This document shows, piece after piece, positions 1 through 64,000 of a stretch of 64,000 nt of DNA. This DNA comes from an uncultured Gemmatimonadaceae bacterium. GTDB lineage: Bacteria > Gemmatimonadota > Gemmatimonadetes > Gemmatimonadales > Gemmatimonadaceae. A program made the translations under genes and the position numbers. The stretch is taken from contig CAWHHI010000008.1 in the NCBI GenBank assembly GCA_963829055.1, positions 352,001 through 416,000 on the forward strand, in the 5' to 3' direction. Within the stretch, counting starts at the first letter, position 1, and each line of letters begins with the position of its first letter. The notes under the pieces are model-generated. The model did not search any database, was not told where the DNA came from, and saw nothing but the letters and a program-made list of their open reading frames with translations.

Positions 1-947
1 GGCTCCTGGGGAGCGTTCATCACGTACTTCTCCTTCGCTGTCGCGCCGCAGCATCTCGCGAAGGATTTCTCGTGGCCGTGGCGAGCCGCACGGGTGCTAC
101 TCGAGGGGCACAACCCGTACGACGTGATCCAGGCGACCGGCCCCTACCCGTTCAACGTCGGGCTGTTCTATCCGCTGCCCGCGGCGGTTGCCGTGCTTCC
201 GTTCGCACGACTCAGCCCCGTGCTGGCAGGGACGCTTTTCATTTTCGTATCCGCGACGCTGCTCGCGTTCGGTCTCACGAGCCGTCGGCAGGACCTGCAC
301 AAGCTGCCGCTGTTCGCGAGCGCACCATTTTGCATGGCTGCGGTGCTTGGTCAGTGGGCGCCCCTCATGACCGCCGCCGCGCTGCAACCGGCACTGCAGT
401 TCCTGCTCGCGGCGAAGCCGAATCTTGGGCTAGCATGCTGGATCTATCGGCCGAGTATTCGCGGAGCCATCGCCGCGGCGGTGTTCGCGCTGCTGACGTT
501 GTTGATCATTCCCACGTGGCCGCTCGACTGGCGGCACGCGCTGGAAGCGGCGCCGCGGTACAAGGGCCCAATCATGCGTGGCGCAACGGGGCTGCTGCTC
601 CTCGTGGCGGCAGTACGCTGGCGCCGACGCGAAGGGCGTCTATTTCTCGCCATGTCCTTCGTGCCGCAACTGACGTCTGTTCTACGATCAGCTGCCGCTC
701 TGGCTCGTCCCGAACACCGTCTGGCGGTCGCTGCGGCCTAACGTTCCTCAGCTGGGTCGCCTGGTCGCAGTGGTATCCGAGTCGGGCGCTTCCGTCGAAC
801 GTCGCCGCGGCGGAACCCTGGGTGTTCTGGCTCCTGTACATTCCCACGCTCGTGCTCGTCCTGCTGCTTCCGAGCCACGAGTCGTCGATGCCTGCTCGCG
901 CGGATGCAGCAGCACACGACGTCGCGAGCCCGCCAGCGACTACCTAA
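1..947 (+). CDS. GT87/DUF2029-like (GT-C fold) membrane glycosyltransferase, copy 1; 5' end outside window, frameshift near 675
   Basis: Frame 1 reads KDFSWPWRAARVLLEGHNPY..YPLP..GQWAPL..KPNLG..RWRRREGRL, continuing in another frame to TAA 945-947; hydrophobic; same motifs as five other copies in window. Confidence 0.7.
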   Translation, partial: LLGSVHHVLLLRCRAAASREGFLVAVASRTGATRGAQPVRRDPGDRPLPVQRRAVLSAARGGCRASVRTTQPRAGRDAFHFRIRDAARVRSHEPSAGPAQAAAVRERTILHGCGAWSVGAPHDRRRAATGTAVPARGEAESWASMLDLSAEYSRSHRRGGVRAADVVDHSHVAARLAARAGSGAAVQGPNHAWRNGAAAPRGGSTLAPTRRASISRHVLRAATDVCSTISCRSGSSRTPSGGRCGLTFLSWVAWSQWYPSRALPSNVAAAEPWVFWLLYIPTLVLVLLLPSHESSMPARADAAAHDVASPPATT

Positions 948-2553
948 CGAGTGCCCGACGGTCCTGCTGCCGCGGCCTTCGTGCCCGAGGTAGCGCCCAC
1001 GGGTGGCTCGATGCCGACCTGGTCGAACCGCGGGTCCGAGCGGATCGCGTCGAATCCCGGATCGCGCAGCGCGCTCCGAAGCTCGGCACCACGAGGCCGG
1101 GCACGCGAGAGCGCGTCGAATGCCTTGTCACGAGTCCCAAGAGCCGTGAGGCCGAGGCTCAGATACACCGCATCGCGGACGCCGAGCGTGCTGCCTGCTT
1201 TCAACTTCGCGTTCGACAATCGGCGAGCATCGGCCTTCGCGGCATCGAACTCCCGCGAGTAGGCGTTGACGTAGAACTCGAGTGCCTCGCCCCACGCGGC
1301 GCCACTCAGGCGCCGAGCAGTTTCAGCATCGCTGAACGCGTCGCGGAATTCATCCATGTGCATCCGTACGCGCGCCCGAAGCGCGTATGCAAGCGGGTCG
1401 TACGAGTCCGCACCAATGCTTGCGTTCACGAGCGCGCACGCATTGACGTATCGTCGCGCCAGATATTCCAGCTCGGCGAGCAATCGCAGCGATACCGCGC
1501 GGTCGCGCTCGAAGCCGAGCGCTTGCCTGAGCTGAGCTTCGGCAGCCTGGTCGCGTCCCATTCGCAGCAACGTGATCGCGTACTCCTGACGCGCGTCAGC
1601 GCTACGCGGCGCGACCTTGATCGCGCGCTCGTGCGCCCGGATCGCGCCGGCATAGAGACGGGGATCACGCACTCGCTCGAAGATCGCGCGGCCGGTCCAT
1701 GCGTCAGCGGTCGCGCTGTCGGCGAGCAGCGCGCGATCGACCAGTGCTTCTCCCTCGCGCAGCGCCGCGAGCTGCCCGAGTGGACCAACTCGACCGCGCC
1801 GCTCGAGGGCGGTGGCGTAGGCCCGGACAAGCCGTCCGAGCACGAGTGCCGACTTGGGCGCTTTGTCCAGGGCGCGTTCGAACGCTGCACGGGCTGAGTC
1901 TCCAGCCCAGAGGTCGTACTGCGTCAGGAAGTAGTCGCCACGAGCCAGGTTGTCGTACGCCGCCGGATCGGAGACAGGACGGCGGACGTTAGGCCGCGCA
2001 GCTCTGCAGTACCTCGGCGACGGCGGCGACAACCTGATCCTCGATCGACGCCAGGGAGGTCTGCGGATACAGGAACTCCCGCTCCCAGCGAGGCATCTCG
2101 CCGCCACGCGCGAGGATACGCATCGTGATCGACGCGCCGCCGCGCTGCGAAGTCATGGTGCCTGTGACCATGAACTTCGCGCCCACCAATTCCGCCAACT
2201 GATTTACCCGACCCTGCCGCTTCCGCCGACGCTCGTTCGGCGCTGCCGACGGTAGGCGTGAAGATCCCAGGGACGCCCGACAGACCGTTCGCGATCCCGC
2301 GTGCGATGGCCCAGGGCAGATGGACCTGTGCGCCATCACTGAGGCGCGCTTCAGGCGCGAGAACAGCGACAACGGTTCCTGCCGACGACGCGGGACGACC
2401 AATGAGATCCGCGAACGGAACCCGAGCGTCGACGCGACACGGCGGAGGCGGCGCGATGCGAGGCGTCTGCGCGCCCGCACGCGTGAGCCCCAGGCCGCCA
2501 ATGAGCACACCCAGAGTCACGCGCCCGAAGGCGCGCCCACCTTGCATTGCCAT
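944..2553 (-). CDS. Exported TPR-repeat protein at distal end of tad locus (frameshifted)
   Basis: Signal-like N-terminus (ORF 1924..2553), helical TPR-like repeats in ORF 944..2107 (ARAAFERALDKAP, AIRAHERAIKVAP, AEAQLRQALGFE). Confidence 0.65.
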
Positions 2554-2592
2554 TGTCGTTAGGCCGTCGAGGCTGGAGATCCGTGCGGACCG

Positions 2593-3790
2593 CTAGCGAA
2601 CCAGGATGAGGCGTTTAAGAGTCGTGGGCCCCGGCCCAACCGGCCCAGTCGTCGTCATCGGCTTGAATATGCCTGTAATCGACGCCGGCGGATTGTTCGG
2701 ATCCGGCGTTCCGCCGCCGTTAGGCATCACCTTCGTCAGCGTGAAGGACCCGAGCATCTGGACAGTGACCTCGGCCGGCGCCGTTACAGCCGCTGATAGC
2801 AGAGATGGAAAGCCGCCTTGATATCGACGCCGGTCGTCCCGTCCTGATTCAGGCAATCGCCGTTGCTGGTAAGGGTATAACACACGTAGTACTGCTCGTT
2901 GCCGTTGCGCTCGACGCCCTGGAGCGTCGGACCTACCATGTTGCCCGTCTGGACCTCGAGCACGTCTCCGATTCCCAGGGTATAGCAGGTCTGCTCCGGC
3001 AATATTGTCGCGGTATTCGTTACCGCCACCCTGCGGCGGGATCCCATCCGGGTTCAGCGTCCCATCGGCCGAACGCTTGCGCGGTAGCTTCACTGCCTGG
3101 TAGTTGCCTGGCGCCGTCGAACCTGGCGGCGGGTCATCCACCGTCGTCTGGTTACCGTTGCCCGCGCCCATCTTGAGGTTGAATGTCCGGTCAGCGACGG
3201 ACATGTTGTTCAAGACCTCGCGGTCCTCGTCGGTGAACGGCCGCGTCAGATTGTGCCGCGGTGTTCGCCAGTCCTCGGGCGGTGTTGACTTTCTGCATCA
3301 GGATCACGTACGGGATCGACCACGGTCGGATGCAGTTCGAGTTATTGACCGGAGCATTTGCCCAGGCCGTCGCTCGAGCCTTGACGCGCGGCGCGGCAAT
3401 GCCAAATGCGCCCATGATCATCTTGTTGGTGCCGTGGCTGACGACGACGTGCACGGCGTTAGGCACCGTCGAACCGCTCACGAGTGTGAACGTGCTCGTC
3501 GCGTCGTCCCACGTGCCCAGCTGCACGCTGTCCACGGTTACCAGATCGTACATGGCCCGATTGAGCTGAGCGATCGCCGTAGCGGTGTCGACGGCAGCGG
3601 CTCTGGGGTGCGGCGGGTTCAACTGCACTGCACCCGCGAGCGCACCGGCGTCGGCTGACGTCTGCAGCTCGTTCCGCATCGTCCAGATGCGACTCATGTC
3701 GATGGCCATCGCCGCCGCGCCCATCAGAACCATGAACAGGAGTCCGAACAGCACGACGAACACGCCCTTCCGATTCTTCATCCGACGCAT
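2593..3790 (-). CDS. tadG: TadG-like pilus assembly protein (frameshifted)
   Basis: RKGVFVVLFGLLFMVLMGAAAMAIDMSRIWTMRNELQTSADAGALAGA is a typical Tad N-terminal pseudopilin domain. Confidence 0.8.
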
Positions 3791-3844
3791 CGCATCCTCC
3801 GGGTAAGTACAGTCCCGGCCTTCGCTCGCCTGCACGCGTCTTCA

Positions 3845-4780
3845 CTACTGCCCGATCTTCCCGAACTCATGATGACCTGGACCAGCGCCGGTCCCATGAT
3901 CACGATGAACAAGGCCGGCAGAATGAACAGCACCAGCGGGAACGTCATCTTGAGCGGCGCCTGCTTTGCCTTCTTCTCCGCGGTCTGACGGCGCTTGCGC
4001 CGGAGCGTCTCGGCCGACACGCGAAGCACCGTCGCAATGCTCGTACCCCACTTCTCGCTCTGAATCATGCTCGAGACGAGCGCGCGCATCTCCTCGACGC
4101 CCGTGCGCTGCCAGAGCGAGCGCAGCGCGGTGTCGCGCGGGATGCCGGCGTTCGTCTTTCGGTTCACGACCGCCAGCTCGTGCGCGAGGTCCGTGTGCGC
4201 CGAGCCGAATCTCACGGGCCACGCGAAGGATCGCCGCGTCGAGACTGACGCCGGCTTCGACGCAGACGACCAGGAGGTCCAGCGCATCCGGGAACCGACC
4301 GCCGAATGCGCTCCTGCCGCTGCCGCACGAGCCGGTCCAGGAAACCCATCGGGAATGATCCAGCCGCGCAGAACATCGACGACGCCAATGCTGAGCGCGT
4401 ACATCGAAGAAGCTGATCCTCGGGCCACGAAGGCGATCGCGAGCACCGGGAGGATCGACGAACGAGACCACTCGAACGAAGAAAGAACGTCGCCGGCGCG
4501 GTTGGCGTATCGAACCCCGCCTGAATCAGCTTCTCCTGACGACGCGACGTCGTCGGTCGGACTGCCCGGGCAACGTATCCAGCAGCCACTGGCGGAGGCC
4601 GACGCGACTGCGGTCCTTGATCGGGCCGAAGCACGATCGTCGGACGCGGAACCGTCGTCCATCGACGCCCGCGCGCGCCAGCACGGCTCGCCGCTGTGCG
4701 ATCGTCAGATGAGCGCAGCCCGCCGACGATGACGGCGAGCACGACCAACGACCAGGAGAACGATGAGCTGAAATGGGCAT
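3845..4780 (-). CDS. tadC: Tad inner-membrane platform protein TadC (frameshifted)
   Basis: FPDALDLLVVCVEAGVSLDAAILRVARE and AEKKAKQAPLKMTFPLVLFILPALFIVIMGP (T2SS-F domain). Confidence 0.88.
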
Positions 4781-4790
4781 GGCTCGGACC

Positions 4791-5773
4791 TCAGATATCG
4801 ATGTCGGCGATCTTCATCATCATGTAGTACCCCGCCATGACCATGAACCCGGCGAACACGAACACGATAGACGCCCGTGGGCTGACTCGCCAGCATCGGC
4901 TCCATGAACTTCGCGGTTGATCAGGTTGATGAGGACGAACACGACCAACGGGCAACAGCCGACAGAATGCGCGCCGACATCTTCGACTCCGCCGTCAGCG
5001 TCTCGATGTCGGCCTTCAGCGCCGCCCGCTCGCGCATGAGCGTGCCGATGTTCCCGAGCACCTCGCTCAGGTTACCACCGGTCTCGCGCTGAATCAGCAT
5101 CGCCGTCACGAACATCTTGAGATCCAAACTATCAATGCGGCTCTGCAGGGCAAGCAGCGCGGTGCGGACTTCCATGCCGAGTCGCTGCTCCTCGTAGAAT
5201 CGCGAGAACTCCGGACCGAGCGGTCGCGTGATCTCTTCGCCAATGAACTTCATCGCGGCCTGGAACGAGTACCCGGCCTTCATCGCGCTCACCAGCATGT
5301 CGATCGCGTCCGGCAACTGATCCCGGAACAGTCGAGATGCGCTTCTTCTGCTTGCCACGGAGCCAGCCAGATCGGGATCAGGAATCCGACAACGCCGCCG
5401 AGAAAGCCAACGATGGCTCCCCGGAAGAGCCAGCCGAGCGCGAATCCGACGACCGTCGACGACAGATGCACACGCGGAGCAGGAAGCTCGCCGGCGTCGT
5501 CTGCTCGAGCCCCGCCTTCTGGAGCTGCTCGGCGACGACCGACGTGATACCGCGGCCAGCCAGCAACCTGTCGAGCGCCGGCAGATCGCTGACGTTCGCC
5601 TCGCGAAGGATGCTCCGAACACTGTCGGCGTAGAGCGATCGCGCTCTCGCAGCCGGTCGAGCGCAGCATCGGCCTGCGCGAGAGCCGCGGCGGTTGATGA
5701 ACAGGTACCCGCCGATCAGCACGCCGACGATGCCGAGAAGACACCGCGCGAGCAGTCAGTAGCTGCGACCCAT
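4791..5773 (-). CDS. tadB: Tad inner-membrane platform protein TadB (frameshifted)
   Basis: FRDQLPDAIDMLVSAMKAGYSF..QRETGGNLSEVLGNI..TLTAESKMSARILS. Confidence 0.88.
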
Positions 5774-5778
5774 GCAGT

Positions 5779-7275
5779 CTACTCCGATTCGAACATCCGC
5801 GGCGGCAGCTCGACGCCGGCCACCCGGAGTCGGTCGGTAAACGTCGGCCGAACGCCGGTCGCCTCGAACTGGCCGACGATCCGGCCTTCCGGCGAGATGC
5901 CGCGGCGCTTGAAGCGGTAGATCTCCTGCGTCGTCACGACCTCGCCTTCCATGCCGGTGACTTCGGTGACGCTCACGACCCGTCGCGTTCCGTCCGACAG
6001 ACGCGACGCCTGGATGATCACGTCGAGCGCCGACGTAGATCTGCTCGCGCATCGCGCGGTTCGGCAGGTTGGTTCCCGCCATGAGGATCATCGTCTCGAG
6101 ACGCGCCAGCGCGTCGCGCGGCGTAGTTCGCGTGAACCGTCGTCAGCGATCCTTCGTGACCGGTGTTCATCGCCTGGAGCATGTCGAGCGCCTCCGCGCC
6201 GCGAACCTCACCGACGATGATTCGATCGGGGCGCATACGCAACGCGTTCTTCACGAGGTCGCGGGCCACGACTTCGCCGCGGCCTTCGGAGTTTGGCGGC
6301 CGTGTCTCGAGCCGAACCACGTGCTCCTGCTGCAGCCGGAGCTCGGCGGCGTCCTCGATCGTGACGACGCGCTCGTCCGCCGGAATGAACGAGCTGAGCG
6401 CGTTGAGCAGCGTCGTTTTGCCCGGAGCCGGTACCGCCGGAGATCAGCATATTCAGCCGCGCCTTCACGCAGCCGGCGAGCAGCTGCAGCATCTCCATCG
6501 TCAGTGCGCCGTTCGCGATCAGCTGCTCGACCGTGAGGTCGGCGCCGAATCGACGGATCGACAGCACCGGTCCGTCGAGCGCCAGCGGCGGAATGATCGC
6601 GTTGACGCGCGAGCCGTCGGGGAGACGGGCGTCGACCATCGGCGACGACTCGTCGACGCGACGGCCGACGCGGCTCACGATGCGGTCGATGACCGCCAGC
6701 AGGTGCGCGTCGTTCCGGAACTGCGCGCCGACGCGCGAGAGCTTACCCTTTCGCTCGATGAAGATGTCCTTCGCGCTGTTGACGAGGATGTCCGAGATCG
6801 TCGGGTCGCGGAACAGCGGCTCGATCGGGCCCGAGGCCGGTGATCTCCCAGACGATCTGCTCGACGATCTCCTCGCGCTCCGTCTGGCTGAGCGGCGTCG
6901 ATTCCTCGCGGAGGAACTCACCGACGGCGAGCCGGATCTGGTGGACGACCTCGACTTCATCCTTGATCTGCTCGAGCGCCTCGAGGTCGAGGCGCTCGAT
7001 GAGCCGGTGGTGCAGGTCGATCTTGAGCTGATCGACGGCGCTGAGCTTTTCCGTCGCTCGCGTCCGCGCGTCGAGTACATGCTCGACCCAGGCGCGCATC
7101 GAGCGACTCGATCGCCGACAGCGCGCCGTCTGAATGGCGGCGCGGGCGGCGCCGCCGCAAGGCGGCCATTCGAGCTGCTCCAGCTCCGGAGATTCGGGCG
7201 CGGCAGCGCGGCGGCTTCGCGGCGCCGTGCCGTTCGAGCTGGCTTTCGCCCCGAGAGTCGATCCATCAGCGACAT
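5779..7275 (-). CDS. cpaF: Tad assembly ATPase CpaF/TadA (frameshifted)
   Basis: [19 protein letters not shown], Walker [41 protein letters not shown]. Confidence 0.93.
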
Positions 7276-7277
7276 GT

Positions 7278-8487
7278 TCAGCTCCTCTTCCGCGCGAACA
7301 GGTTCTTGAGACGCGATCCGCCCGGCGCCGTTCTGGTCTGTGCGCGCCATTGGTCTGCCGAGGCTGACGCCTCCACCGAGCTTGCCGCAAGCTGCGCGAA
7401 CGCCCAGCCGAGCTTCGACGCCCGGGTCGAACTCGGCGACCGGCACGCCGTTCGTGAGCGCGCCGGACGCCACGCGATAGTCGTTAGGCAGCTTGAAGAA
7501 GATCGCGGCCTTGAGCACGTCTTCCGCGTCCGCCGGAGAGAGCACCTCGCCCGACTGGAAGCGGTTGACGACGACGCAGACCTTGTCCTTCGAGTAGCCG
7601 AGGCGGCGGCACAGCTTGACCGTGCGCTGCGTGCTGCGGAGCGCCGCCGACGCTCAGCTGCGTCACGAGGACGATCCGGTCCGCCGCGTCCAGCGCCGCG
7701 AGCGTTCGATCGTTGAGCTGATGCTCGCAGTCGAGCACCGTGAACAGAAAGTTGCTGCCGCAGGTGCTGGATGATCGTGGTGACCGTGTTCGCGTCGACC
7801 TGCTCGTCCGCCTCGGGGCTGTCCGGCGCCGGCAGGACCCAGACACCGCCACGACGTCGGCGTCAGCAGCGAATTCAGCAGCTCCGCATCGATGCGGTCG
7901 ATCTTCGCGACCAGGTCGCCAAGGTCGTAGGACGGATTCGAGGTTCAGCAGGACGCGAATGTCGCCCGCCCCGATGACCAGGTCCGCGAGCGCGGCGCGA
8001 GCACCCGGGTGATTCTTGGCGAAGCCATACGCGAGGTTCGTCGCAACCGTGCTCACGCCGAGCCCACCCTTCGGCGCTGTACACGGCGATGATCTCGCCG
8101 TGATCCGACGGTCGACTGCGTGCGCCGCATCAGATCGATCGACGGCCGCCGGCAAGGTCCTTCGGGTCGGGCGGAGCGACGAGGAACTCCTGAATGCCGG
8201 CGCGCATGGCGCGCAGCATCACATCCGGCTCCTGCTTTGGGTGCGGTGCCGATGACCGCCGTGTAGCGCTCACGACGAATCTCCCGCTCGAGCGTGGCCA
8301 GCTGAAGATCGGCGACGCCGTCGAGCGGGAGGATCACGAGATCGACGTGCTTCTGGCGAAGCTGATCGATCGCCGCCTCCACGTCATCCACACTGTGGAA
8401 TTTCGTGAACCCGAACCGGGCGAGCACCTCCGTCGCCGGCTCTTCCGGTCCGGCCGCGCGACCAACGAGCAATGCCTCTCGTGCCAT
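7278..8487 (-). CDS. cpaE: CpaE/TadZ receiver-like plus MinD/ParA-type ATPase (frameshifted)
   Basis: [38 protein letters not shown]; position between secretin and ATPase. Confidence 0.82.
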
Positions 8488-8527
8488 ATCTGCTCGATAT
8501 ACCTGGTCTGATTCGACTCGCCGCGTG

Positions 8528-9705
8528 CTACGGGCGCGCGCTGGTTAGGCGGCAGGCGCTTCTTCAGCGCGTCGAGTGCCGGCTTCGTCGTATCAGGCTT
8601 GCAACCGCATCACGTCCTCGGCGCGCGGGCGCAGCGGATCGACGATGATCGGGTGTGACGATCACGATCAGCTCCGACTCGTTCTTCTGGAACCGCGTGC
8701 TCGAGAACAGCTGACCGAGGATCGGGATGTCCATGAGCAGCGGGATGCCGGTCTTGACGCGCTCATCCTCGTTGGAGAACAGGCCCGACAGGACGAGGCT
8801 CGTGTTCCGCCTGACGTCGACGGTGCTCTCGATGCGGCGCGTGCGGAGCGCCGGAATGCGGAAGCCCTGGAGCAGGACGGCGTTCGACGAAGTCGAGGCT
8901 CGACACCTCGGGCATCACCTGCAGCTTGATCAGGCTGTCACTCACGATCTCCGGCGTGAACCTGAGCCGGATACCGAACTCCCGGAATTGAATGGATACA
9001 CGCCGATTGGCCACCCGGACCGCCACTGCCGCCCTGCACAACCGGGATCGGCATCTCGCCACCGGCGAGGAACGTCGCCAGCTCGCGGTTCGCCGTCATG
9101 ATCGTCGGCTCGGCCAGCAGGTGAGCATTGCCGTTCTGTTCCTGCGCGTCGAGGAACGCCAGCAGGTCGTCGGTGCCGAAATCGGTGAGAACGGTGAGGT
9201 ACCGCGTTAGCGACGGGATCGTGACCCTGCCGGTGATCGGGTCGATCGTACGCGTCGCTGCCGAAGTTCCCACTGCCAACGCGAACGTTCTTGTCGCGGT
9301 AGATCGCCGAGACGCCCGATCTCGCGGAGCGCATCGCGTCGGACTTCGGCGAACTTCACGGCCAGCGCGATCTGCATGCGGTCCGCGGCGCGTGTGAACC
9401 TGAACGCGGAAATGCACCCGGCGTCCGCTCTGCAGCCAGAGAATGATGTCGCCTTCACCGGCGGCGGCGGCGTTGATGACGATCTCGCGCTCCGATACGA
9501 CGACGGCGTCGACGATCGCCGGGTTCGCGACCGTGACGCGCGTGATGACTTCCGCCGCCCGGTATGGGTAGGAACGCCCGAGGGGCAGGTCGAGGCGCGT
9601 GACCGCGGTTTCCTGCGCGAACGCACGCTGCGACACGAACATCATCGCGGCGAAGAAGCCGAGCATGCGAATGGCGCGCCGGTACACGTCGCTCTTGCCG
9701 ATCAA
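8528..9705 (-). CDS. cpaC: Tad secretin CpaC/RcpA (frameshifted)
   Basis: RVTVANPAIVDAVVVSEREIVINA, LLAEPTIMTANRELATFLAGGEMPIPV, FREFGIRLRFTP..PEVSSLD. Confidence 0.88.
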
Positions 9706-9766
9706 GCGAGTGCTCCTTGTGAGGTGATGAGGTTGGGAATGTGCTTCACGCCGAGTGCGCACGCGC

Positions 9767-10722
9767 TCACGGCGTCTTCGAGGAGTCGCGCTTCGCAGCC
9801 GAATCCTTCTGGAACTTGAGATCCGTTGCGCTCGTTCCGCGGAACACCTTGACGTTGAACGAGTCGGGTCGCGCCGGCTTCGGGTGGCGGCGCCTGAACG
9901 ACCGGCGGCGGCGAGTGGTGACTGACGCGGTGCCGGAGCTGGCGATCGTTGCGCGGTGCGGCGCGGTTCCGGCGCTTCGCGTCGCGGCAGCGGGACGGTG
10001 CGCGAGCGCTTGATGTCGGTGAGCACGTCGCTGGCGTTGGCGCCGTTGGTGCTGATGCTGTCCGGGTCGCCGTAGCCGCGCAGCACGAGCTGCAGCGCGC
10101 CCTGCGCGGCGGCGATCGCCAGCCTCTCGGCCTCGCTCCGGCGTGACCTCGATCGAGGCGACGCGCGGCGCTGATCGGGCGGCCGTCCTGGGCGCGCTCC
10201 GGCGCGGCGCCGATGGCCAGCACGCGCATGTTCGACATGAACAGCTTGGCGGTGCTCTTGCCGGCGTTCTCGGGGTCGTCGATGACGACCATGATGTCGA
10301 CGCGGCTGTTCGGCTGGACCATGCCGGCGAGGCTGGCGACGTCGTTGATGCGGATGCCGTAGGCGCGCTTGCCCGGGGTGATCTTGACCTCGAGCCCGGC
10401 GCCGGTGCCCTCCGGGGCGAGCCGCCCGGGGACGAGCGCCTCGCCCTTGTAGACGGCCACGCGGGTGACGCGGTCGGCCACCGAGTCGACGTTCGTGTAG
10501 GCGCCCGCCGGCTGCGTGCCCGCCGGCCACTGCGCCACGACGACCGCCATGCGGTCGACCTTGACGCCCTCGGGCATGTCCTTCGGCCGCGACCACGACC
10601 GGCACGGTCGCGATGCGGCTACTCGCCTTGGTCGCCTCGAGGACGCGGTACACACCGAAGGTCGCGATGACCGCGACGACGAGAGCGAGGTAGAAAATCA
10701 CTGTGTAGCGCTTCGCAGCCAT
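9767..10722 (-). CDS. cpaB: CpaB/RcpC (SAF domain) (frameshifted)
   Basis: VPVVVAA-KDMPEG, KITPGKRAYGIRINDVASLAGMVQPNSRVDIMV, AERLAIAAAQGALQLVLRG. Confidence 0.9.
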
Positions 10723-12265: not shown

Positions 12266-12498
12266 TCACGGCCTCCACAGACTTCGTTATCCCGCGTCGA
12301 AGCTCCTGACTAACCATCGTTAGGCGGTGAGCAGTAGCCGTCACCGATTACTCCGAGCCCTTCAATACGACAACGCGCCGACTCGACAGACGTCCGCGCG
12401 GGGAACCCACACTCCGCGGAAGCGCCATTGTAGCACGCTCCTCGGCGGAGTAAAACAGGCGATCGTCGTTAGATCGGCGAATCGCCGTTAGATCAGCG

Positions 12499-18862: not shown

Positions 18863-20293
<1,431 letters not shown>

Positions 20294-52527: not shown

Positions 52528-53442
52528 ATGGACACACCCGTCGCGTTCCTGGTCTTCAACCGTCCCGACACCACAGCTCGGGTGTTCGCCGAGATCGCTC
52601 GGGCGCGCCCGCGACAGTTGCTCGTCGTCGCCGATGGGCCGCGCGCCGACCGGCCCGGAGAGGCCGAACGGTGCGCGGCGGTACGCGCCATCGTCGAGCG
52701 CGTGGACTGGCCATGCGACGTGCGCACCAACTACAGCGAGCGCAACCTCGGCTGCCGAGGGCGGGTGTCGTCGGGGCTCGATTGGGTTTTCGAGGAGGTA
52801 GAGGAGGCCATCGTCCTAGAGGACGACTGCCTGCCGCATCCAACCTTCTTCCGTTACTGCGAAACCCTCATCGACCGTTATCGCGACGACGAGCGCGTGA
52901 CCTGCATCAGTGGCGACGACTTCCAGCGCCGGGATGCCGGGTGCGCTTGGAGCTATTACTACTCGCGTTTTGTGCATGTTTGGGGGTGGGCGAGCTGGCG
53001 CCGGGCCTGGCGGCATTACGACGTCGCAATGCGCGGGTGGCCCGCGACGCGTGATGCGGGCCTGCTCGAATCGGTGTGGGGCGCGGATCGGCGGGCGGTG
53101 GCGCACTGGCGCTCGATCTTCGACGACGTACATGCCGGCCGCGTGGACACCTGGGATTTCCAATGGGTCTACGCCTGCTGGCAGCAGGGTGGCCTAACGG
53201 CACTACCCTGCGGCAACTTGGTCTCCAACCTTGGCTTCGGAGTAGAGGCGACGCACACCGCAAGCGCCAGCCGGCTTGCCGCGCTTCCGATTCGGGAGAT
53301 GGCATTTCCGCTCCACGCACCTCCGTACATGCGGGCGGACCCGTTCGCCGACCACTTCACGCAGCATCGCATTGTCTCCGATGAGCGAGCCGTTCGTCGT
53401 CTCAAGCAGTGGGTCCACCGCATGCTCCGCGCGCGCTCGTGA
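52528..53442 (+). CDS. GT-A nucleotide-diphospho-sugar transferase (HlpA-like)
   Basis: PVAFLVFNRPD, ADGPR, IVLEDDC, WGWASWRRAW, TWDFQW. Confidence 0.88.
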   Translation: MDTPVAFLVFNRPDTTARVFAEIARARPRQLLVVADGPRADRPGEAERCAAVRAIVERVDWPCDVRTNYSERNLGCRGRVSSGLDWVFEEVEEAIVLEDDCLPHPTFFRYCETLIDRYRDDERVTCISGDDFQRRDAGCAWSYYYSRFVHVWGWASWRRAWRHYDVAMRGWPATRDAGLLESVWGADRRAVAHWRSIFDDVHAGRVDTWDFQWVYACWQQGGLTALPCGNLVSNLGFGVEATHTASASRLAALPIREMAFPLHAPPYMRADPFADHFTQHRIVSDERAVRRLKQWVHRMLRARS

Positions 53443-56460: not shown

Positions 56461-56912
56461 CGGCGAGCGGGGGACGGGCGCGATGCGGGCATCGGGAGCT
56501 CGCGCCGCGACATGATCGGCAATAGGGTTGTTTATGGCAATGAGATCGCGAATTCGGGGCACGTACTCGCGCCCCCCTGTCGCATCAGCGCATAAGCCGC
56601 GCGGGGCGTCTGCTGGGCGAAAATGCTATGGAGCGTGATCACACGGGCACGGGCCGGTCAAGCGCGGCGCGAATGCGCGGCCTCCGTGGGCGTGAACAAC
56701 GTCGGCTCCATGAGCCCGTCGCCGTCGTACGACGACGTCAACCGAGCTGCATGTCGACGAACGGACGCGGTCCCTACGGCGAATCGGCATTCTCGCGGGA
56801 GGTAGAGGGCTTTCGGATCTCGATTGACGAACGATGGTGCGCCGCGTCGTTAGGGTCAGCGATAGTCGTCGCCTTCTAACGGGCAACTTGAGATCTCGAG
56901 CAGTCGTCTCAT

Positions 56913-57785: not shown

Positions 57786-57789
57786 GAGG

Positions 57790-58636
57790 CTACTGGCTAA
57801 GACGGAACCCTCGGATCCTGCCAAGGCACGTCGTCCAGTGAAACCGCGTCTCCTCACCTGCGAGCTTCAGCATCGCAAGGACCGTCCGACCCGCCGGCAC
57901 ACCGAAAAACAACACGCGCCACCACATCGGCATCGGGTGTTCGCGCAGCATTCGTCCATCACCGAGTGCATAGCTGTAACGCTTGACGCGGCTTTTTTCG
58001 TCGAACGAGCGAAATATCCTCGGGTGATGGATCTGCAGATGCTTTTCATACCGGACCTGAAATCCGTTCTCTATGGTCCGGAGCATCAAGTCGTTGTCCT
58101 CCCCGCCCCCCCATGGCGTGCCAGCACCGCCACCGAGCGACTCGTCGAATCCACCGATTTTTCGCAATACGCGTGAGCGATAGACGCATGCGAAGCAGAC
58201 GGCTCGCCGCCAACATATCGGCTTCGTCGCTTGCCCCGAGCGATCTCGCCACGGAAGGATTGGACGGCCCGACTCGTCAATTGCCTCGCCGATGATTGCA
58301 TTCGCATCCGGAATCTGCCGCCAGAAGATCATTCACCTGCTGAAGGAAGTCCTCGGGATACCAACAATCGTCGTCGGGAAAGCACACCACGTCCCCGCTA
58401 ATATGGTCGATGCCGAGGTTTCGGGCGCGCGAAGCACCCGGCGTGTCGGTTAGGTACAGATGGCGTATCTCGAGCTTGCCCGCAAAGCCAGCGAGAATCG
58501 GCTCCAGCCGGGTGTCCGGATTTTGATCGACCACAATAACGTCAAAATCCTGATGAGTCTGCGCCTCGAGCGACGCAAGCAGTCGTCCCAGCTCGGCGGT
58601 TCGCCCGACGGTGGCGACAACCAGAGAGATCCTCAT
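57790..58636 (-). CDS. GT2 glycosyltransferase (frameshifted)
   Basis: ISLVVATVGR, VVDQ, SRARNLG, FPDDDC, GGFDE..GED. Confidence 0.88.
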
Positions 58637-58669: not shown

Positions 58670-59811
58670 CTATCGGTCGCCGATTACACGCAAGGGTGAC
58701 GACGGCTTCATGGGGGCGTTAGGCCGTTCAATGCCGCGTCCCGCGATTACTTGATGCAGGAAGCCAGGTCTCGAGTACGGATTATCGAACACCTCGATCG
58801 TGATCGGCTCATCCTGCCTAACGGCGACAACGAGCGGGTCACCGGTGATGAGCTCGCGACACGAGAGCTGACCCTTCTGCAGTGGGATAGCGAGGTAGTA
58901 ATCCTCGTCCGTCAAGACGTCACCGGCTGGAAGATCCCGCGTGGCATAAACGCCTCGCACCAGGCTATCGAGATACGCCGTTTCCTTGGGCGGCAATCGC
59001 CGTCGCTCTGCGCTCGACCCGCCACACATCTCCCTGCGCCTTGTGGAATGCACGGAACCACTCGACGATCTGCTCGGGCGTCGAACAGTACGGCGTGATC
59101 GGGTGATCGGGCGTATCGATGTCGATGTGTCGCTCGAAGGTCCGCGCACCCTTCGCATACGCCATCATGATCGATGACGTCCAGTCGTGATACTCGTGCG
59201 TCGAGAATCCGATCGTCACGCCGGGATATCGATCGCGAAGGAAGTCGATCTGATTGATCTCGAGCTCGGAGTCCTCGCTCGGGTACAGTGACACGCAGTG
59301 ATTGATCGCGAGCGGAATGTGACGGTTCTGGAAGAACGTCACCATCGCGTCCATGCTTCGCACCGACGCGCCCCCCGTCGACACGATCACCGGCTTCCGC
59401 GCCTTCGCGATCCGCTCGAGCAGCGGCCAGTCCGTGATGTCCGAGCTCGCGACCTTGATGATCTCGATGCCGACATCCTCACAGAAGTCCACGGACGCTT
59501 CATCGAACGGCGTCGCCAGACGGATGCAGTTGTTTCGCCGAACGGCTTCCACCAGCGTGGCCATCTCATCACGTGACAGCCGAGTGTCGAGCGTCTTCTT
59601 GATGTAGCGAATGTCCTCGCGATGCCGGAAATCCTTGTGCACGAAGGTGTCGACGATCGCGGAACTGCAGCTTGATCGCCGCACGAACGTCGTTGTAGCG
59701 GACCACCGTCGAGAACTCCTTCACGATCCGGAGTCCACGGTTCACATCGCCCCAGTGGTTGTTCGCCAGCTCCAGCACGAACAGCTCGTCGAAAATATCT
59801 CGATTGATCAC
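58670..59811 (-). CDS. NeuB/SpsE-like synthase with SAF domain (frameshifted)
   Basis: LELANNHWG, TPFDE, HCVSLYP, GFSTHE, FERH, RGVYA. Confidence 0.85.
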
Positions 59812-59838: not shown

Positions 59839-60981
59839 CTACGCCGAGACGTGAGGAACGGCGTACATCACCGTGTCGAAGCCGTAATGCCCATGACTCC
59901 GGAGATAGAAGTCGTACCACGGGCCCATGTCGCGGACGAACAGCGGAATCTCCCAGAGGTGTTCCGGACGATGGTAGACGCAAACTGCAAGGCGCGGGTG
60001 CGACCGGCTGATGAGCTCTCGCGCACCGCGCAGCGCGTCGAGCTCCGCGCCCTCGATGTCCAGCTTCAAATCAGTGGCGAGCGTATTCGGCAGGACGTCG
60101 TCGAGCGCGACCGCGGTGACGATCTCGCCTCCGCTCGCGGATAGGGAGCTCGCCTCGCCTTCCGCCCCCTGAAAGTTCCGATGCTCGAAGTGATCGGCGA
60201 CCGCACACGGCCAGACCGATACCTCGGCACCGCTCTCCCGCGAGAAGCGACGCGCGAATCTCGCGAGCGACGCGACGTTCGCGAGGTCCGGTTCGAACGC
60301 GTGCACGGTATCGACCGGATACCCGAGCTCCGCAATGCTCGCCAGCGTGTCACCGATGAAAGCGCCACAGTCGATCAGCCGCATCGGTCCGCGCGTGAGC
60401 GGCACGTCAGACGGGAAGTACTGATGACCGCTGCACGGCACGGGTCCGGCGTACGCGGCCCAGGACAGGCGGTATCGGACGGTGTCCAGATAGAGCTCGC
60501 GACTCGCCTCGTCGGCCCAGAGACGTGACGCTTCGTCGATCCGGTCGGCGAATGCGCCATAGCTGGAGCGGGTGGCAAGCCAGAAGCGCTCTCCGAAATC
60601 GGCCGCGAACGACTCGTACAATTCGGGGACCCCGACGACCCTCCCGTAGCCTAACGCTTCGAGCGTATCCTCGATCTCGGCCGGATCCGCGTCGCGATTG
60701 AACACCGCCACGACTGCGACCGCTTCGGCGCGCTCGGCAAGCGTGAGCGGCTCCTCGCCGGGCGAATAGACGAGCACGCCATCAATCGGCGGGCACATGG
60801 CTGCTCGCCGATCGAGCGCGCAGACGATGTCGGCGTTGGCCGCACGCAGGACGCGAATCGCTTCGCGCGCGAAGCCACCCGCGCCGTACACCACGACGCG
60901 CTCACCATCGATCGGCTTCCAGGACGATCCCACTGAACGAACCGAATACCGCTGGTCGGTGTGGCGAAGTACCGTGCTCAT
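59839..60981 (-). CDS. FkbM-family methyltransferase with N-terminal GAG domain
   Basis: VYGAGGF, IDCGAFIGDT, KLDIEGAE, CVYH; paralog of 33021..34227. Confidence 0.88.
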   Translation of the reverse strand: MSTVLRHTDQRYSVRSVGSSWKPIDGERVVVYGAGGFAREAIRVLRAANADIVCALDRRAAMCPPIDGVLVYSPGEEPLTLAERAEAVAVVAVFNRDADPAEIEDTLEALGYGRVVGVPELYESFAADFGERFWLATRSSYGAFADRIDEASRLWADEASRELYLDTVRYRLSWAAYAGPVPCSGHQYFPSDVPLTRGPMRLIDCGAFIGDTLASIAELGYPVDTVHAFEPDLANVASLARFARRFSRESGAEVSVWPCAVADHFEHRNFQGAEGEASSLSASGGEIVTAVALDDVLPNTLATDLKLDIEGAELDALRGARELISRSHPRLAVCVYHRPEHLWEIPLFVRDMGPWYDFYLRSHGHYGFDTVMYAVPHVSA

Positions 60982-61018: not shown

Positions 61019-62832
61019 CTACTCGGACATGCTCACGGCTGGGACAATCATGTTTTCCAGGAATTCCTCGTCGAGGCAGGAATGGGGCCATGTCCTCGAG
61101 CGGGGCTGTAACCATACGTCCATCCGCGAGTCGCTTCGATGAGACCTTCGGGGCGAATGGTTGAGCCAGGTCGAGCATCATCTCGCAAATGGCTGGGCCT
61201 GGCTCATCCAACGTGGCGCGGATCGCCGACTTCAGCTCGCTATGATCGCACGCGCGACGAAACGGCAAATCGAATCCGTACGCGATTCGCTGAAAGTCGG
61301 GGAACGTCACTCCGCTCTCTGGCCCTGAGCCGACATCGTTCCCGGGGAAGAAATTGCGCTGCGTCTGTCGGATCGAGTGATAGCCGTTGTTGTTGAGCAG
61401 AAAGATCTTCACCGGCAAACCGTAGCCCTTGATCGTCTGCATCTCCTGCAGATTCAGCATCACGCTGCCATCGCCCGTCACGCACACGACTCGGCGACGA
61501 CCACCGCCCACACACGCGCCGATCGCTGCGGGGAGATCAAAGCCCATGGGAGCGCAGCCGGAATCCGAGAACAGCCGCTGGCCATGCTTCAACTTCGCGG
61601 CCTGGAACGTCGTTATGCAGGCGGTGCCATCGCCGGTAACTACGATGTCGTCGGGCCCGAGGGCATCGAATAGCGCGTCGCCAAAGCAGTACGGATTCAC
61701 GCCGTTGGTGCCATCCCAGTACTCCGGCTGCACCACCGGATAGCGCTCCCGACGCGCGCGGCACCAGTCGATCCATGACTGGCGGTCCTGGTCGATGACC
61801 ACGGGCGCGGCGGCGAGCAGCCTAACGACGTCCGCAACGTCGGCATGCACGGGCAGGTCGGGCTTCACCGTGGGCTTCCGAAGCTCGAGCGGGTCGATGT
61901 CCACGATGATCTTGTACGCCTCGCGGGCGAAGTGCTCCCACGCGTAGCTCACCTGCCGAATGTTCAGCCGGCAGCCGAGTACGAGGACGACATCCGCGTT
62001 CTGCACGGCGAAGTTGCCGCCGCGATCACCGATGGTTCCCGGACGCCCGACGAAGAGCGGGTGGTCACTCGCGATGAGGTCGTGCGCGTTGAAGCCGGTG
62101 GCGATCGGGATCTGGAGCCGCTCCGCGAGTGCGACCAACTCGTTGGCGGCGCCGCCGAGGCGAACGCCAGCGCCAGCGTAGATGATCGGCCGCTTCGCGC
62201 CGAGTGATCGCTTCCATGATGCGGGCGCAATCGGCCTCCAGCTGCGCGGCGGGACGTGCCGGCGCTTCGGCCGCGGCGTCGAACCCGTGCAGCGTCGAGG
62301 GGTCAATGTTCGCACCCTGCACGTTCATCGGAATGTCGAGCCACACTGGACCCGGACGTCCCGTTCGAGCCAGGTGGATCGCTTTCTCGATGTGATAGCG
62401 AATGGTCAACGGGTCGGTGACCATCACCGCGTACTTGGTGATGGATTCGACGAGCTTGACGATGTCCACTTCCTGATCGCCCAGCTGGCGCAGAGGGAGG
62501 CCGGTGCTACGCACGAGCGTCTCCCACTTCACCTGGCCCGATACGACCACCATGCCGAGCGAATCGACCCACGCCCCAAAGACGCCGGTGATGGCGTTCG
62601 TGCCACCGGGCCCCGTGGTGACGTTCACCGCCGCGAGCCGGTTCGTTAGGCGGTAATAGCCCTGCGCGGCGATGGCGCACGCCTGCTCGTGGTGACAGCA
62701 GACGTAGTCGAGGCGATCACAGCGGCCGATGGCGTCGTTCAGATGCATGGCGCCGCCGCCAGTCACCATGAAGACGTCGCGGATGCCGTGATCGGCGAGG
62801 GCGGTGGCAACGTAGTCAGCGAGCCGCACCAT
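61019..62832 (-). CDS. ThDP-dependent acetolactate-synthase-like enzyme, copy 2 (frameshifted)
   Basis: FMVTGGGAMHLND, HHEQAC, TTGPGGTN, GDGSVMLNLQE..NNNGY. Confidence 0.9.
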
Positions 62833-64000
62833 TCAATGCTTCCTTGTGTTGGCCGATTCCGCCGGTGCTTCATTCGGCGGCTCGAGCGTTATCGTCCGGT
62901 TGGGCAGGCCGAGCTCACGGATCCGCCTGAGGATCGGTGCCTGGCTGATGAGAGATCCGATCACAATGGGCACCTGAAATCGTCGGAGCTGTTCCGGTGA
63001 GATGACGGGAATCCCGCCAAGCGTCCGCCCATGGTACCGCGGGTTCGAATCGGCGATCGCGAGAACCTTCGCGCCGCCTAACGGCGGCATTCGCGAGCAG
63101 CGTGAGCGTCGTCTGCCCTGCGCCCCAGATGACTATTTCCGGAACGCTCGCCAGCTCGCGCTCGAGATGCTCGGACTGTTCAGCCAACAAGCGCGACGAC
63201 GCCGCGATGTAGTCGTTCACCGCACCCCCGAGCGCCGTGTCCCGAACAGCCGTCACCGGGCCGCGCTGCGCTGCGCGTCCGATGGCCCACACGGCCGGGT
63301 ATTTCGCTGTGGACGACGCGTTGATGGTCTTCTGTTCGACATGCTCGACCTCGAACCCGGCCGCGCGCAGCGCGTTCGCCAGCGAGACGGCCGAGAAGTG
63401 GTTGATGTGCTCGACGTTGAAGTCCTGAAAGGGTGCGACGAGATAGTCCGTATACCTGGAAGCGTCCGGCACCTCCACGTACACCGTTCCGCCGTCGCGC
63501 ACGACATGCCTCAACGTCCGTAACGCGGTTGGAACGTCGCGGACGTGCTCGAGCACGTGCGAGAGAATTGCACAATCGGCGCCGCGTACCGCTTCCGGAA
63601 CCTGAAAAATAGTACCCGCGTGGCCAGTGACCCCGGGAATCCTCCCAACCGTCTCGGCGCACGCTGGCGACGGGTCCACGCCATGCAACTCGGCATACCC
63701 GAGAGCGGCCAGTTCCGCCAGCAGGCCGCCGTTCCCGCATCCGATGTCCACGATGCGACGACGCGTGTCACCCAAGGCTCCGGCGATGTCGATGGCCGTC
63801 TGCCTCAGCCGATCGCGATCCCATTGTTGCTCGCCGCCGCCTGTACCGGTTGTGGCGTCGGAGTACTTGGAGAGATCCGCGTAGTAGCGATCGTAGTCGG
63901 CCTGCGTCGATGGCGTGTCCGCATGCACGGAACCGCACTCGACGCATCTGACCACGTCGTACGTTTTCGCGAGCGGATGGTCGTCGGGCAACAGAAATCG
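62833..64000 (-). CDS. Class I SAM methyltransferase, paralog of 31819..33024; 5' end outside window
   Basis: YDVVRCVEC, VDIGCGNG, SHVLEHV, YVEVP, APFQDFNVEHINHF, IWGAG..ADSN. Confidence 0.87.

Follow-up and report, generated by a model that had tools for sequence, protein, structure and literature searches.

The octamer in the window

The window, that is, the whole 64,000-nt stretch of DNA analysed here, from an uncultured soil bacterium of the Gemmatimonadaceae, contains a TadG-like gene of a Tad pilus, a BlaR1-like gene, a suf operon, and a glycosyltransferase gene, and dispersed across it are 37 copies of the octamer CGTTAGGC. The first-pass annotation had located 22 of them on the plus strand and 15 on the minus strand, and all of these positions are exact. 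On the plus strand, the copies lie at 1987–1994, 2557–2564, 2718–2725, 3457–3464 (within the TadG-like gene, antisense), 7482–7489, 12318–12325, 19128–19135 (sufB), 21377–21384, 23118–23125 and 23519–23526 (both in sufS), 25149–25156, 30296–30303, 32391–32398, 40378–40385, 41794–41801 and 41821–41828 (two copies in tandem, unusually close at 27 bp), 45518–45525, 47799–47806 (at an ORF end), 49658–49665 (in the glycosyltransferase gene, frame xCG-TTA-GGC), 50002–50009, 58717–58724, which faces the minus-strand copy at 58816, and 62644–62651. The minus-strand copies are those at 736–743, 16306–16313 (in the BlaR1-like gene, again in frame xCG-TTA-GGC), 16745–16752, 20536–20543 (sufC), 24208–24215, 27792–27799, 37681–37688, 38704–38711, 46728–46735, 51474–51481 (at an ORF end), 53192–53199, 58816–58823, 60649–60656, 61820–61827, and 63076–63083. 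Thirteen of the 37 fall outside called ORFs.

The enrichment is real, since none of 100 dinucleotide-preserving shuffles reached 37 copies (mean 1.44, sd 1.19, maximum 5); the earlier hand estimate of two to three expected copies was slightly too high, and the window enrichment is about 26-fold. The hexamer core GTTAGG occurs 52 times, including the 37 full octamers. All 12 sites reported previously as holding only the seven-mer (CGTTAGG without the final C) are present, and three further cores (octamer starts 8543, 41194, and 58448) add to that list. These near-cognates read CGTTAGGT at 39709–39716 and 41499–41506 on the plus strand and at 942–949, 28557–28564, 28915–28922, 31412–31419, and 48578–48585 on the minus strand; CGTTAGGG at 35080–35087 and 56848–56855 (plus) and 45410–45417 (minus); CGTTAGGA at 35104–35111 (plus) and 46517–46524 (minus); and, all on the plus strand, GGTTAGGC at 8543–8550, TGTTAGGG at 41194–41201, and GGTTAGGT at 58448–58455.

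Abundance and codon context in the genome

The octamer is by no means confined to the window. The assembly to which the window belongs (G000; 7.78 Mb in 20 contigs, 86% complete) holds 5,004 copies, or 0.64 per kb, spread over all 20 contigs at 0.48–0.80 per kb. This is about 49 times the order-2 Markov expectation, and CGTTAGGC is the top 8-mer under Markov models of orders 1–3, which predict 102–258 copies.

Codon usage does not account for this abundance: the called ORFs contain 3,348 copies, compared with 138–185 in ten synonymous-codon shuffles and 59–79 in ten shuffles of codon order. Rare codons are concentrated within the word, which harbors 1,327 of the 2,873 TTA codons (46%), along with 618 of 4,049 CTA, 938 of 8,971 CCT, and 457 of 6,549 AGG codons. 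All four stop-free reading frames are used and both stop-containing frames correspond to genuine stops (238 of 918 TAA and 196 of 1,911 TAG codons), with the frame counts coming from a crude ORF caller (7,419 ORFs, 77% of the genome) applied to an assembly full of frameshifts. Frame use, synonymous shuffles, and codon concentration thus support the initial proposal that selection or drive acts on the DNA rather than on the peptide. None of the three outcomes that the first-pass annotation had set as grounds for refutation was observed.

The word consists of a strict GTTAGG core that prefers C, and less often T, on either side. Its flanks are not conserved, the logo reaching at most 0.13 bits at any flanking position; a mobile repeat of the REP or MITE kind was rejected on this ground.

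Orientation and spacing

The strand balance noted in the window extends to the genome, with 2,547 plus and 2,457 minus copies and 2,415 strand runs against 2,514 expected. Over 368 windows of 20 kb, orientation correlates neither with GC skew (rho 0.05, p 0.30) nor appreciably with gene strand (rho 0.09), and its variance is binomial (1.07). Among the 82 family genomes with at least 500 copies, the mean forward share is 0.500, and 20 samples of a 5.3-Mb contig of another motif-rich genome, G057, revealed no skew-linked switch of orientation. On contig C16 of the present genome, the plus-strand share is 59% on one side of a GC-skew switch and 47% on the other.

A Chi- or KOPS-like polar signal of the chromosome, which the first-pass annotation already disfavoured, would be in keeping with an over-represented octamer and with the shares on C16. 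The absence of correlation with skew or gene strand, the binomial variance, the near-random strand runs, and the G057 samples all speak against it, as does the magnitude of the enrichment, given that Chi is enriched far less than 49-fold; we regard this explanation as scarcely credible.

The copies also avoid one another. Gaps shorter than 200 bp number 215 in G000, against 612 expected from 500 random placements (sd 21, minimum 546), and those shorter than 400 bp number 721 against 1,150, while gaps of 400–1,600 bp are in excess. This repulsion is weaker in samples of other rich genomes, G205 having 33 gaps under 200 bp where 39 were expected and G057 having 10 where 20 were expected. Pairs of copies within 150 bp in G000 show the arrangements plus-minus, minus-plus, plus-plus, and minus-minus 27, 29, 45, and 36 times, respectively.

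Distribution and conservation among relatives

A survey of the family and the phylum bears out the suggestion that the motif is lineage-specific. About a third of the Gemmatimonadaceae genomes (91 of 301) carry CGTTAGGC at 0.1 per kb or more, with densities of up to 1.34 per kb; the octamer is used in 28 of 77 genera, and it is nearly absent from the rest of the phylum. None of the five genomes tested from named or cultured lineages is motif-rich, each having 11–30 copies. The contrasts can be sharp even within a single genus-level group, in which G066 and its kin hold about 3,500–4,100 copies (about 0.9 per kb) and G124, G279, and G301 only 4–66 (0.001–0.013 per kb). The sole hint of a dialect comes from G010, where the variant CGTTTGGC occurs 48 times in 254 kb against 11.9 expected.

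Where orthologous sites can be aligned between species at about 80% DNA identity, the octamer is identical at 16 of 23 and 14 of 23 sites in two comparisons, and arbitrary 8-mers at fractions of 0.22 and 0.20, so that retention is about three times the background. In the suf operon of the window, the word is retained at 3/3, 3/3, and 3/5 sites. The sufB copy at 19128 is shared with the congeners G001 and G005, and motif-poor genera read CGCTCGGC there, implying that a Leu codon, CTC, became TTA. The sufC copy at 20536 is retained in G001, G005, and G004, with CGTTGGGG or CGTTCGGC in motif-poor genera; the copy at 21377 is retained in G001 and G005 and replaced by CCGTCGGG in G004. In this last genome, the sufS site at 23118 reads CGCTCGAC, and the word is kept at the second sufS site, 23519, and at 24208. 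Motif-poor relatives present GC-rich near-cognates at the orthologous positions, which we take as the ancestral states.

Two stretches of the G000 assembly, C6:5.4-55 kb and C11:1-40 kb, are free of the motif and encode FtsK, DAHP synthase, PepM17, chorismate synthase, and FolD a second time, in versions that share only about 50% identity with the first copies. We flag these stretches as foreign or chimeric DNA.

Variants of the word and the modification hypothesis

Variants that differ from the word by one letter are 5–13 times enriched at the two outer positions, and most of those at inner positions are depleted. The commonest carry T in place of an outer cytosine: TGTTAGGC exceeds expectation 10-fold and CGTTAGGT 13-fold. 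G-to-A variants are reduced to 0.2–0.27 of expectation, and A5-to-G and G6/G7-to-A variants are likewise depleted.

The predominance of C-to-T variants raises the question of a by-product of modification and biased repair, of the HIP1 or very-short-patch kind, in which a methyltransferase would mark the site and mismatch correction would convert near-cognates into it. Such a process would also explain a drive on DNA that runs against codon bias, and the patchy distribution in the family would suit a mobile modification system. However, the word is not palindromic, and Vsr (PF03852) was found in none of the five genomes searched, three of them motif-rich, namely G000 (86% complete), G014 (92%), and G066 (96%), which weakens the HIP1 or methylation reading offered at first. 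Furthermore, the depleted G-to-A variants are what deamination on the other strand would leave as its mark, and mutational conversion does not predict that a second copy is avoided within 200 bp. Taken together, a modification and repair bias appears quite unlikely.

Relation to integron attC sites

The seven letters GTTAGGC are the core site of integron attC elements, a match that the first-pass annotation had overlooked. As described in passages of PMC3053210 and PMC2727003, attC sites have an R' core, GTTRRRY, and an inverse core, RYYYAAC. In motif-poor relatives, the same octamer does form the R' end of attC sites: RYYYAAC lies 40–150 nt upstream of 30 of 34 array copies, the ends pair in 30 of 30, and the resulting elements are 88–136 nt long, with an MFE of −26.9 against −14.2 when shuffled. 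In G021, 40 of 65 copies sit in three same-strand arrays. The present genome has an integron array of its own at C20:197124-209104, beside intI, with 11 of 12 copies on one strand, and this is its only array-like stretch. Of 31 relatives, 18 have an IntI that scores above the cut-off, and G000 is one of them.

The dispersed copies are another matter: CCTAAC occurs upstream of 91 of the 5,004 in G000 and downstream, as a control, of 79, and in the lack of an inverse-core excess, hairpin, cassette structure, or conserved flanks their identification as attC sites was rejected. Because the spelling of CGTTAGGC equals the attC R' box, they might still be dispersed half-sites for an integron integrase or an Xer-type tyrosine recombinase, serving by the thousands as attG-like docking or regulatory sites. 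The array copies of motif-poor relatives, including those of G021, the frequency of IntI, and the G000 array lend this view its appeal. Yet IntI does not follow motif richness: it is below the cut-off in the rich G002 and G004, present only as fragments in the rich G014, and intact in the poor G007, G008, G009, G011, G012, and G016. More than 98% of the G000 copies are solitary, the published core tolerates variation in RRRY exactly where A5-to-G and G6/G7-to-A changes are depleted here, and no known recombinase activity writes its own half-site into genes. A recombinase half-site is therefore, in our judgment, very unlikely.

A candidate self tag for DNA uptake

The best reading of these observations is that CGTTAGGC serves as a lineage-specific mark of self DNA, akin to the known uptake sequences, a reading to which we assign a rough probability of 0.45; from the behavior of the word we infer both uptake as the process and a protein that reads it. 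The resemblance to the DUS and USS, proposed from the window, holds for density, frame use, even spacing, and conservation. According to this model, the natural-transformation apparatus would have a component, at the surface or in the periplasm, that favors fragments bearing CGTTAGGC; these would then be taken up and recombined more frequently, and over evolutionary time near-cognates such as CGCTCGGC, CGTTCGGC, and CGTGAGGC would turn into the word wherever the protein permits. A single copy per fragment would suffice, so that copies would build up at about one per 0.7–1.5 kb and seldom close together.

The transformation machinery in G000 comprises ComEC, DprA, PilM, a PilQ-like secretin, and at least five type IV pilin genes; a ComEA-type match was not found there. 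ComEC and PilM occur in all five genomes searched, two of which are motif-poor, and thus the competence genes do not discriminate. As for the reader, no ComP_DUS-type receptor (PF16732) exceeded the cut-off in any of the five; the only match, at 20.7 bits in G066, was set aside as an ordinary type IV pilin. The USS has no known receptor either, and therefore the missing ComP-type protein does not exclude a tag of the DUS or USS kind. The Tad pilus of the window, once put forward as a possible partner, is not supported in that role: the TadG-like pseudopilin is found in none of the six other genomes of the genus of G000, all motif-rich, and in one of the seven genomes of the richest genus, and it occurs in 93 of 301 genomes overall, many of them motif-poor. 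None of the candidate readers considered (IntI, Vsr, a ComP-type pilin, the Tad pseudopilin, and a small GIY-YIG nuclease) tracks the motif.

The even spacing and the conservation would fit an intracellular binding site equally well, for instance one for an abundant chromosome-organizing or DNA-processing protein, such as a nucleoid-associated protein or a loading factor, with one site per 1–2 kb under selection. The short-range repulsion with its excess of 400–1,600 bp gaps, orthologous conservation at about three times background, the strict inner hexamer, and the failure of uptake-linked reader candidates are all compatible with this proposal. Against it, sister lineages of one genus-level group live with 4–66 copies, which makes the site dispensable, and the repulsion is weak in G205; moreover, we know of no nucleoid protein that requires thousands of exact 8-mers. 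We consider such a site unlikely.

What plain uptake drift leaves unexplained is the exact identity of the self tag with the integron attC core. This identity might have a reason, in that the attC R' box is itself recognized during import or that the reader is a domesticated IntI- or Xer-type module, although we hold either version to be quite improbable. Were the import version true, soil cassettes would arrive pre-tagged for uptake, and the bias would have fixed the cassette attC sites of the order on CGTTAGGC; under either version, one eight-letter signal would join natural transformation and cassette traffic in a phylum not known to have been studied for either. In any case, the identity suggests a connection between transformation and the exchange of cassettes that can be put to the test.

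To our knowledge, only in two proteobacterial families has DNA uptake been shown to rely on a sequence tag for self recognition. If the self-tag reading is true, a third and independent case, in an abundant and nearly uncultured soil phylum, would make the strategy a general one. It would also supply a ready lineage marker for metagenomes, as with the motif-free stretches flagged here, and the marked differences in density between members of one genus-level group give a clean starting point for comparative work on the reader. In the literature searched, we found no work that mentions Gemmatimonad* together with "DNA uptake sequence"; for the octamer itself, the matches listed were primers or constructs only, and the sole match for attC, integron, and "uptake sequence" together concerned Ssn nucleases.

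Comparison with known systems

The over-represented 8-mers Chi and KOPS/SRS have a chromosome-wide role, but they show strong strand polarity and much lower enrichment, whereas CGTTAGGC has no polarity. HIP1 of cyanobacteria is likewise a hyper-abundant, lineage-specific octamer that enters genes against codon preference; however, it is a palindrome linked to methyltransferases, and CGTTAGGC is asymmetric.

With integron attC sites the likeness is one of spelling, as GTTAGGC fits GTTRRRY exactly (as the core is given in a passage of PMC3053210) and the attC sites in the arrays of relatives and in the integron of G000 terminate in the full octamer. By contrast, an attC site is an imperfect inverted repeat of 57–141 bp, running from RYYYAAC to GTTRRRY, and the dispersed copies lack the inverse core and vary in number independently of IntI.

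The USS of Pasteurellaceae, like CGTTAGGC, is mostly intragenic, in tolerated frames and with no orientation bias, its accumulation is thought to be due to molecular drive, and it differs in having a 9-bp core with AT-rich flanks, where CGTTAGGC has no flank signal. Its spacing, too, is more even than chance, a trait published by Karlin and cited in a passage of PMC1939737, which also quotes copy numbers of 1,471 for H. influenzae and 1,965 for Neisseria. The DUS of Neisseriaceae, which is read by the minor pilin ComP, is longer (10–12 bp against 8 bp), and CGTTAGGC differs from it in having no inverted-pair excess or terminator placement and no ComP_DUS-family protein over the cut-off, and in belonging to the phylum Gemmatimonadota. 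Nevertheless, both are short, non-palindromic words of about one copy per kb, used equally on the two strands and inside genes, with a core and graded outer positions, common to related genera at differing abundance, and accompanied by a type IV pilus, ComEC, and DprA.

An Octamer Written Across the Genome

The first-pass annotation had described a dispersed octamer, CGTTAGGC, and all 37 coordinates that it listed (22 plus, 15 minus) are exact in the window, where 100 dinucleotide-preserving shuffles gave a mean of 1.44 copies (sd 1.19, maximum 5). The 12 seven-mer-only copies that it named are likewise present, and the core GTTAGG occurs 52 times, 37 of them as full octamers, which is three more than had been listed. 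The window occupies positions 352001–416000 of contig C8 of the source genome (7.78 Mb in 20 contigs), and the enrichment holds on every contig (all 20 at 0.48–0.80 per kb), with 5,004 copies in total (2,547 forward and 2,457 reverse), against Markov expectations of 131, 102 and 258 at orders 1, 2 and 3, respectively; under each of these orders CGTTAGGC is the highest-scoring 8-mer. Of the shorter forms, there are 7,103 GTTAGG and 6,391 CGTTAGG, and TTAG makes up 8,933 of the 20,484 TTA trinucleotides.

Regarding the form of the word, a flanking logo of 15 bases on each side gave at most 0.13 bits at every position, and for this reason CGTTAGGC is a word by itself rather than the centre of a REP or MITE. 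Single-base variants are enriched at the outer positions (TGTTAGGC 10-fold, CGTTAGGT 13-fold and CGTTAGGG 5-fold over expectation) and mostly depleted at the inner ones (0.17–0.65 of expectation), apart from CGTTATGC, at 4.4-fold, and from frequent GC-rich words, of which CGTCAGGC is an example. Hence the recognized unit consists of a strict GTTAGG with C preferred, or less often T, on its flanks.

Within genes, the excess lies at the level of DNA. Open reading frames (ORFs) were called with a purpose-written codon-likelihood program, which returned 7,419 ORFs over 77% of the genome, a low coverage due to the many frameshifts in the assembly. These ORFs contain 3,348 copies, compared with 138–185 in 10 synonymous-codon shuffles, so that the enrichment proposed at first pass survives a codon-preserving null, and with 59–79 in 10 codon-order shuffles. 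In the sense orientation the word is read as xCG-TTA-GGC (1,329 copies) or C-GTT-AGG-C (457), and in the antisense orientation as CCT-AAC (939) or CTA-ACG (620), with another 391 copies at ORF boundaries and 1,268 outside the called ORFs. As a result, 46% of all TTA codons in the genome (1,327 of 2,873) fall within CGTTAGGC, as do 15% of CTA, 10% of CCT and 7% of AGG codons. The word also holds 238 of 918 TAA and 196 of 1,911 TAG stops, and so the earlier statement that it is written in all six frames holds insofar as the two frames with a stop codon serve as gene ends.

In the window, many genes are split over frames, such as SufS (three ORFs, 22501–24213) and the epimerase (two, 24724–25804), and others are partial, such as CpaF (6208–7545) and SufC (20435–21599). 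Given 20 contigs and 86% completeness, these look like the product of a long-read assembly with indel errors and not like real pseudogenes.

Orientation and Spacing

Orientation among the copies is practically random. There are 2,415 strand runs, where 2,514 would be expected (z = -2.8). Over 368 windows of 20 kb, the strand imbalance has a binomial variance of 1.07, and orientation follows neither GC skew (rho 0.05, p 0.30) nor gene strand (rho 0.09, p 0.09). A 5.3-Mb contig of another motif-rich genome (G057), sampled at 20 places, has local same-strand runs and no replichore-scale switch, which, with the GC-skew result, agrees with the initial view that the word is not strand-polarized.

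The spacing, in turn, is non-random. Gaps below 200 bp number 215, compared with 612 (sd 21, minimum 546) in 500 random placements, and those below 400 bp number 721 against 1,150, while gaps of 400–1,600 bp are in excess (2,593 against 2,086). This short-range repulsion is a conservative figure, because heterogeneity in rate would inflate the short gaps; it is weaker in samples from two other rich genomes (10 gaps below 200 bp against 20 in G057, and 33 against 39 in G205). Clusters as a pointer to a regulated gene were dropped, as only 16 tight ones exist in the genome and the densest are pairs resembling attC, the integron site discussed below. That the copies are binding sites for an intracellular protein, a reading that the even spacing would fit equally well, appears unlikely to us. 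The densest cluster of all, at C20:119251-119506, comprises four copies in the order - + - +, 82–90 bp apart, and looks like two adjacent attC-like hairpins with no integrase nearby.

Distribution and Conservation of the Word

The nearest matches to the suf DNA of the window are Gemmatimonadaceae metagenome-assembled genomes. Relatives were found through the 469-aa ORF at 18931–20340 (+), which overlaps sufB, is conserved in relatives (tblastn) and has no Pfam family; it is probably a second frame that happens to stay open within a GC-rich gene, distinct from the SufB frame, and not a gene itself. The taxonomic placement still holds, resting as it does on orthologous DNA. Among 31 relatives examined, all seven genomes of the source genus carry 2,501–5,112 copies and one member of another genus (G014) has 6,360 in 5.1 Mb, while most of the others have 3–60, under a reversed-word control of about 100–400.

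Density is bimodal across 301 genomes of the family (77 genera): 192 lie below 0.02 per kb, 91 (28 genera) reach at least 0.1 per kb, and 69 (16 genera) at least 0.2 per kb, with a maximum of 1.34. This tally counts seven unpublished genomes (G013, G051, G052, G150, G264, G282 and G309), none of which reaches 0.1 per kb; when they are removed it becomes 91 of 294 genomes, with 75 genera covered in all. Two genus-level groups are mixed in richness, and in one of them five members have about 0.9 and three 0.001–0.013 per kb, the poor ones forming a more distant subgroup by DNA comparison (71–78% identity, fragmented synteny). Among the 198 of 251 phylum genomes that lie outside the family, a single sister-family genus is mildly raised (up to 1,061 copies against a control of 271); the phylum tally counts the unpublished G013, G358, G385 and G454, all at baseline. 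None of 10 genomes from other phyla and none of five from named or cultured lineages (Gemmatimonas or Roseisolibacter-type) is enriched. In a Roseisolibacter-type genome (G514), the few copies form recurrent pairs, one plus and one minus, spaced by about 265 bp (C35:4467-13447 and C13:10068-12493); a small element may have such pairs as its ends.

In 8-mer scans of 136–254 kb samples, CGTTAGGC ranks first in G014 (148 against 3.3 expected) and in G010 (31 against 2.5), and no 8-mer of any kind is hyper-enriched in two poor genomes (G008 and G029). Beside its 31 copies, the 254 kb of G010 hold 48 of the one-letter variant CGTTTGGC (11.9 expected), dispersed and with flanks that are not conserved; in the source genome this variant stands at 0.6 of expectation. 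The variant hints weakly at a dialect of the word.

Individual sites are also conserved. In the suf operon of the window, aligned sites are identical in 3 of 3, 3 of 3 and 3 of 5 cases in the congeners G001, G005 and G004, with backgrounds for arbitrary 8-mers of 0.43, 0.45 and 0.31, respectively. Motif-poor genera have CGCTCGGC, CGTTCGGC or CGTTGGGG at the same positions. At site 19128, Leu is CTC in the poor genera and TTA here, a change that takes two substitutions and runs counter to codon preference. Comparisons between rich species sharing 80% identity gave identical sequence at 16 of 23 and 14 of 23 aligned sites (background rates 0.22 and 0.20). Gain or loss within the genus is seen at two sites present in G001 and/or G005 and absent from the source genome.

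The largest motif-free stretches of the source genome lie at contig ends (C6:5,440-55,037, C11:1-40,000 and the last part of C6, 590000-623330); a chimeric join, or contaminant DNA binned with the genome, is their probable origin. The first two contain ordinary housekeeping genes, among them second copies of FtsK, DAHP synthase, PepM17, chorismate synthase and FolD that are only 47–59% identical to the copies elsewhere, and these two are therefore foreign or chimeric. The presence of such segments in the same assembly argues against CGTTAGGC being a sequencing artifact. The congeners, whose assemblies are far more fragmented and still contain thousands of copies, argue the same way.

The Integron Connection

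In poor relatives, the few copies occur in same-strand clusters, 500–650 bp apart; in G021, 40 of 65 lie in three same-strand arrays. In the arrays, an imperfect inverted repeat opens with GCCTAAC and has each octamer copy as its 3' end. RYYYAAC was found 40–150 nt upstream in 30 of 34 array copies examined, and in all 30 of these elements (88–136 nt, minimum free energy -26.9 against -14.2 shuffled) the two ends are paired in the minimum-energy structure. This is the attC anatomy described in PMC3053210 and PMC2727003. Rfam assigned no family at gathering score to two cassette arrays, and hence the attC status rests on the fold and anatomy test. IntI genes adjoin such arrays in relatives. The source genome has its own integron at C20:197124-209104, where a run of 12 copies, 11 of them on one strand, lies at gene ends beside an intI gene (C20:208041-208958, -; 265.7 bits, at the family cut-off); at least two have attC-like upstream arms, and the array is placed downstream of intI, not upstream. 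A five-copy same-strand array in a gammaproteobacterium (Steroidobacteraceae, G513, C102:47307-50621) also looks like integron cassettes, which places the octamer as an attC end outside Gemmatimonadota as well.

The dispersed copies, on the other hand, are not attC sites: CCTAAC lies upstream of 91 of the 5,004, against 79 for the downstream control. IntI was rejected as the driver of the word because its presence does not track richness, and a loose dif search for a Xer link gave nothing convincing. With these results at hand, we regard the idea that the copies are half-sites of a recombinase as very unlikely.

Candidate Readers

ComEC and PilM are encoded in all five genomes searched, rich or poor, and the source genome also encodes DprA, a PilQ-like secretin adjoining pilM, and five pilin genes. 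The ComEA model TIGR00426 found no match in the source genome, with weak matches in four of the five, and no ComP_DUS match exceeded the cut-off in any of the five; the single weak one is an ordinary pilin. Vsr was found in none of the five genomes, and a drive by DNA modification and repair, on which this search bears, seems to us quite improbable.

The Tad pilus, put forward initially as a possible partner, did not hold up. The locus in the window (944–10722 and 17247–17942) encodes a TadG-like pseudopilin, two T2SSF proteins, CpaF, a secretin N-domain and RcpC; the pseudopilin gene occurs in 93 of the 301 genomes of the family and in none of six congeners, and the locus therefore looks accessory.

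A dispersed repeat of about 115 bp, with window copies at 23882–23994 and 20306–20415, forms hairpins that begin with TGTCATTCCGAGCG (456 copies) or TGTCATCCCGAGCG (261 copies). Such hairpins flank on both sides a 97-aa single-domain GIY-YIG gene (G000:C3:889-1182), an arrangement reminiscent of Neisseria SsnA with its NTS repeats (PMC11893778). The published SRM pattern of Ssn nucleases does not fit these repeats (65 matches genome-wide; 3 on contig C16 against 16–18 after shuffling), and the protein has no match in NCBIfam or among solved structures. This small nuclease was rejected as the reader owing to its patchy occurrence (37 of 301 genomes, one of six congeners, none of seven in the richest genus).

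Interpretation

The identity of the word with the attC core is accounted for by none of the readings considered, whether uptake, intracellular binding, modification and repair, or half-sites. In the literature searched, no report of CGTTAGGC or of uptake sequences in Gemmatimonadota was found. The reading that we favor, at a probability of roughly 0.45, is that CGTTAGGC may be a tag of the uptake type. Its set of properties excludes mobile repeats and polar signals and fits what PMC1939737 summarizes for uptake sequences in Pasteurellaceae and Neisseriaceae.
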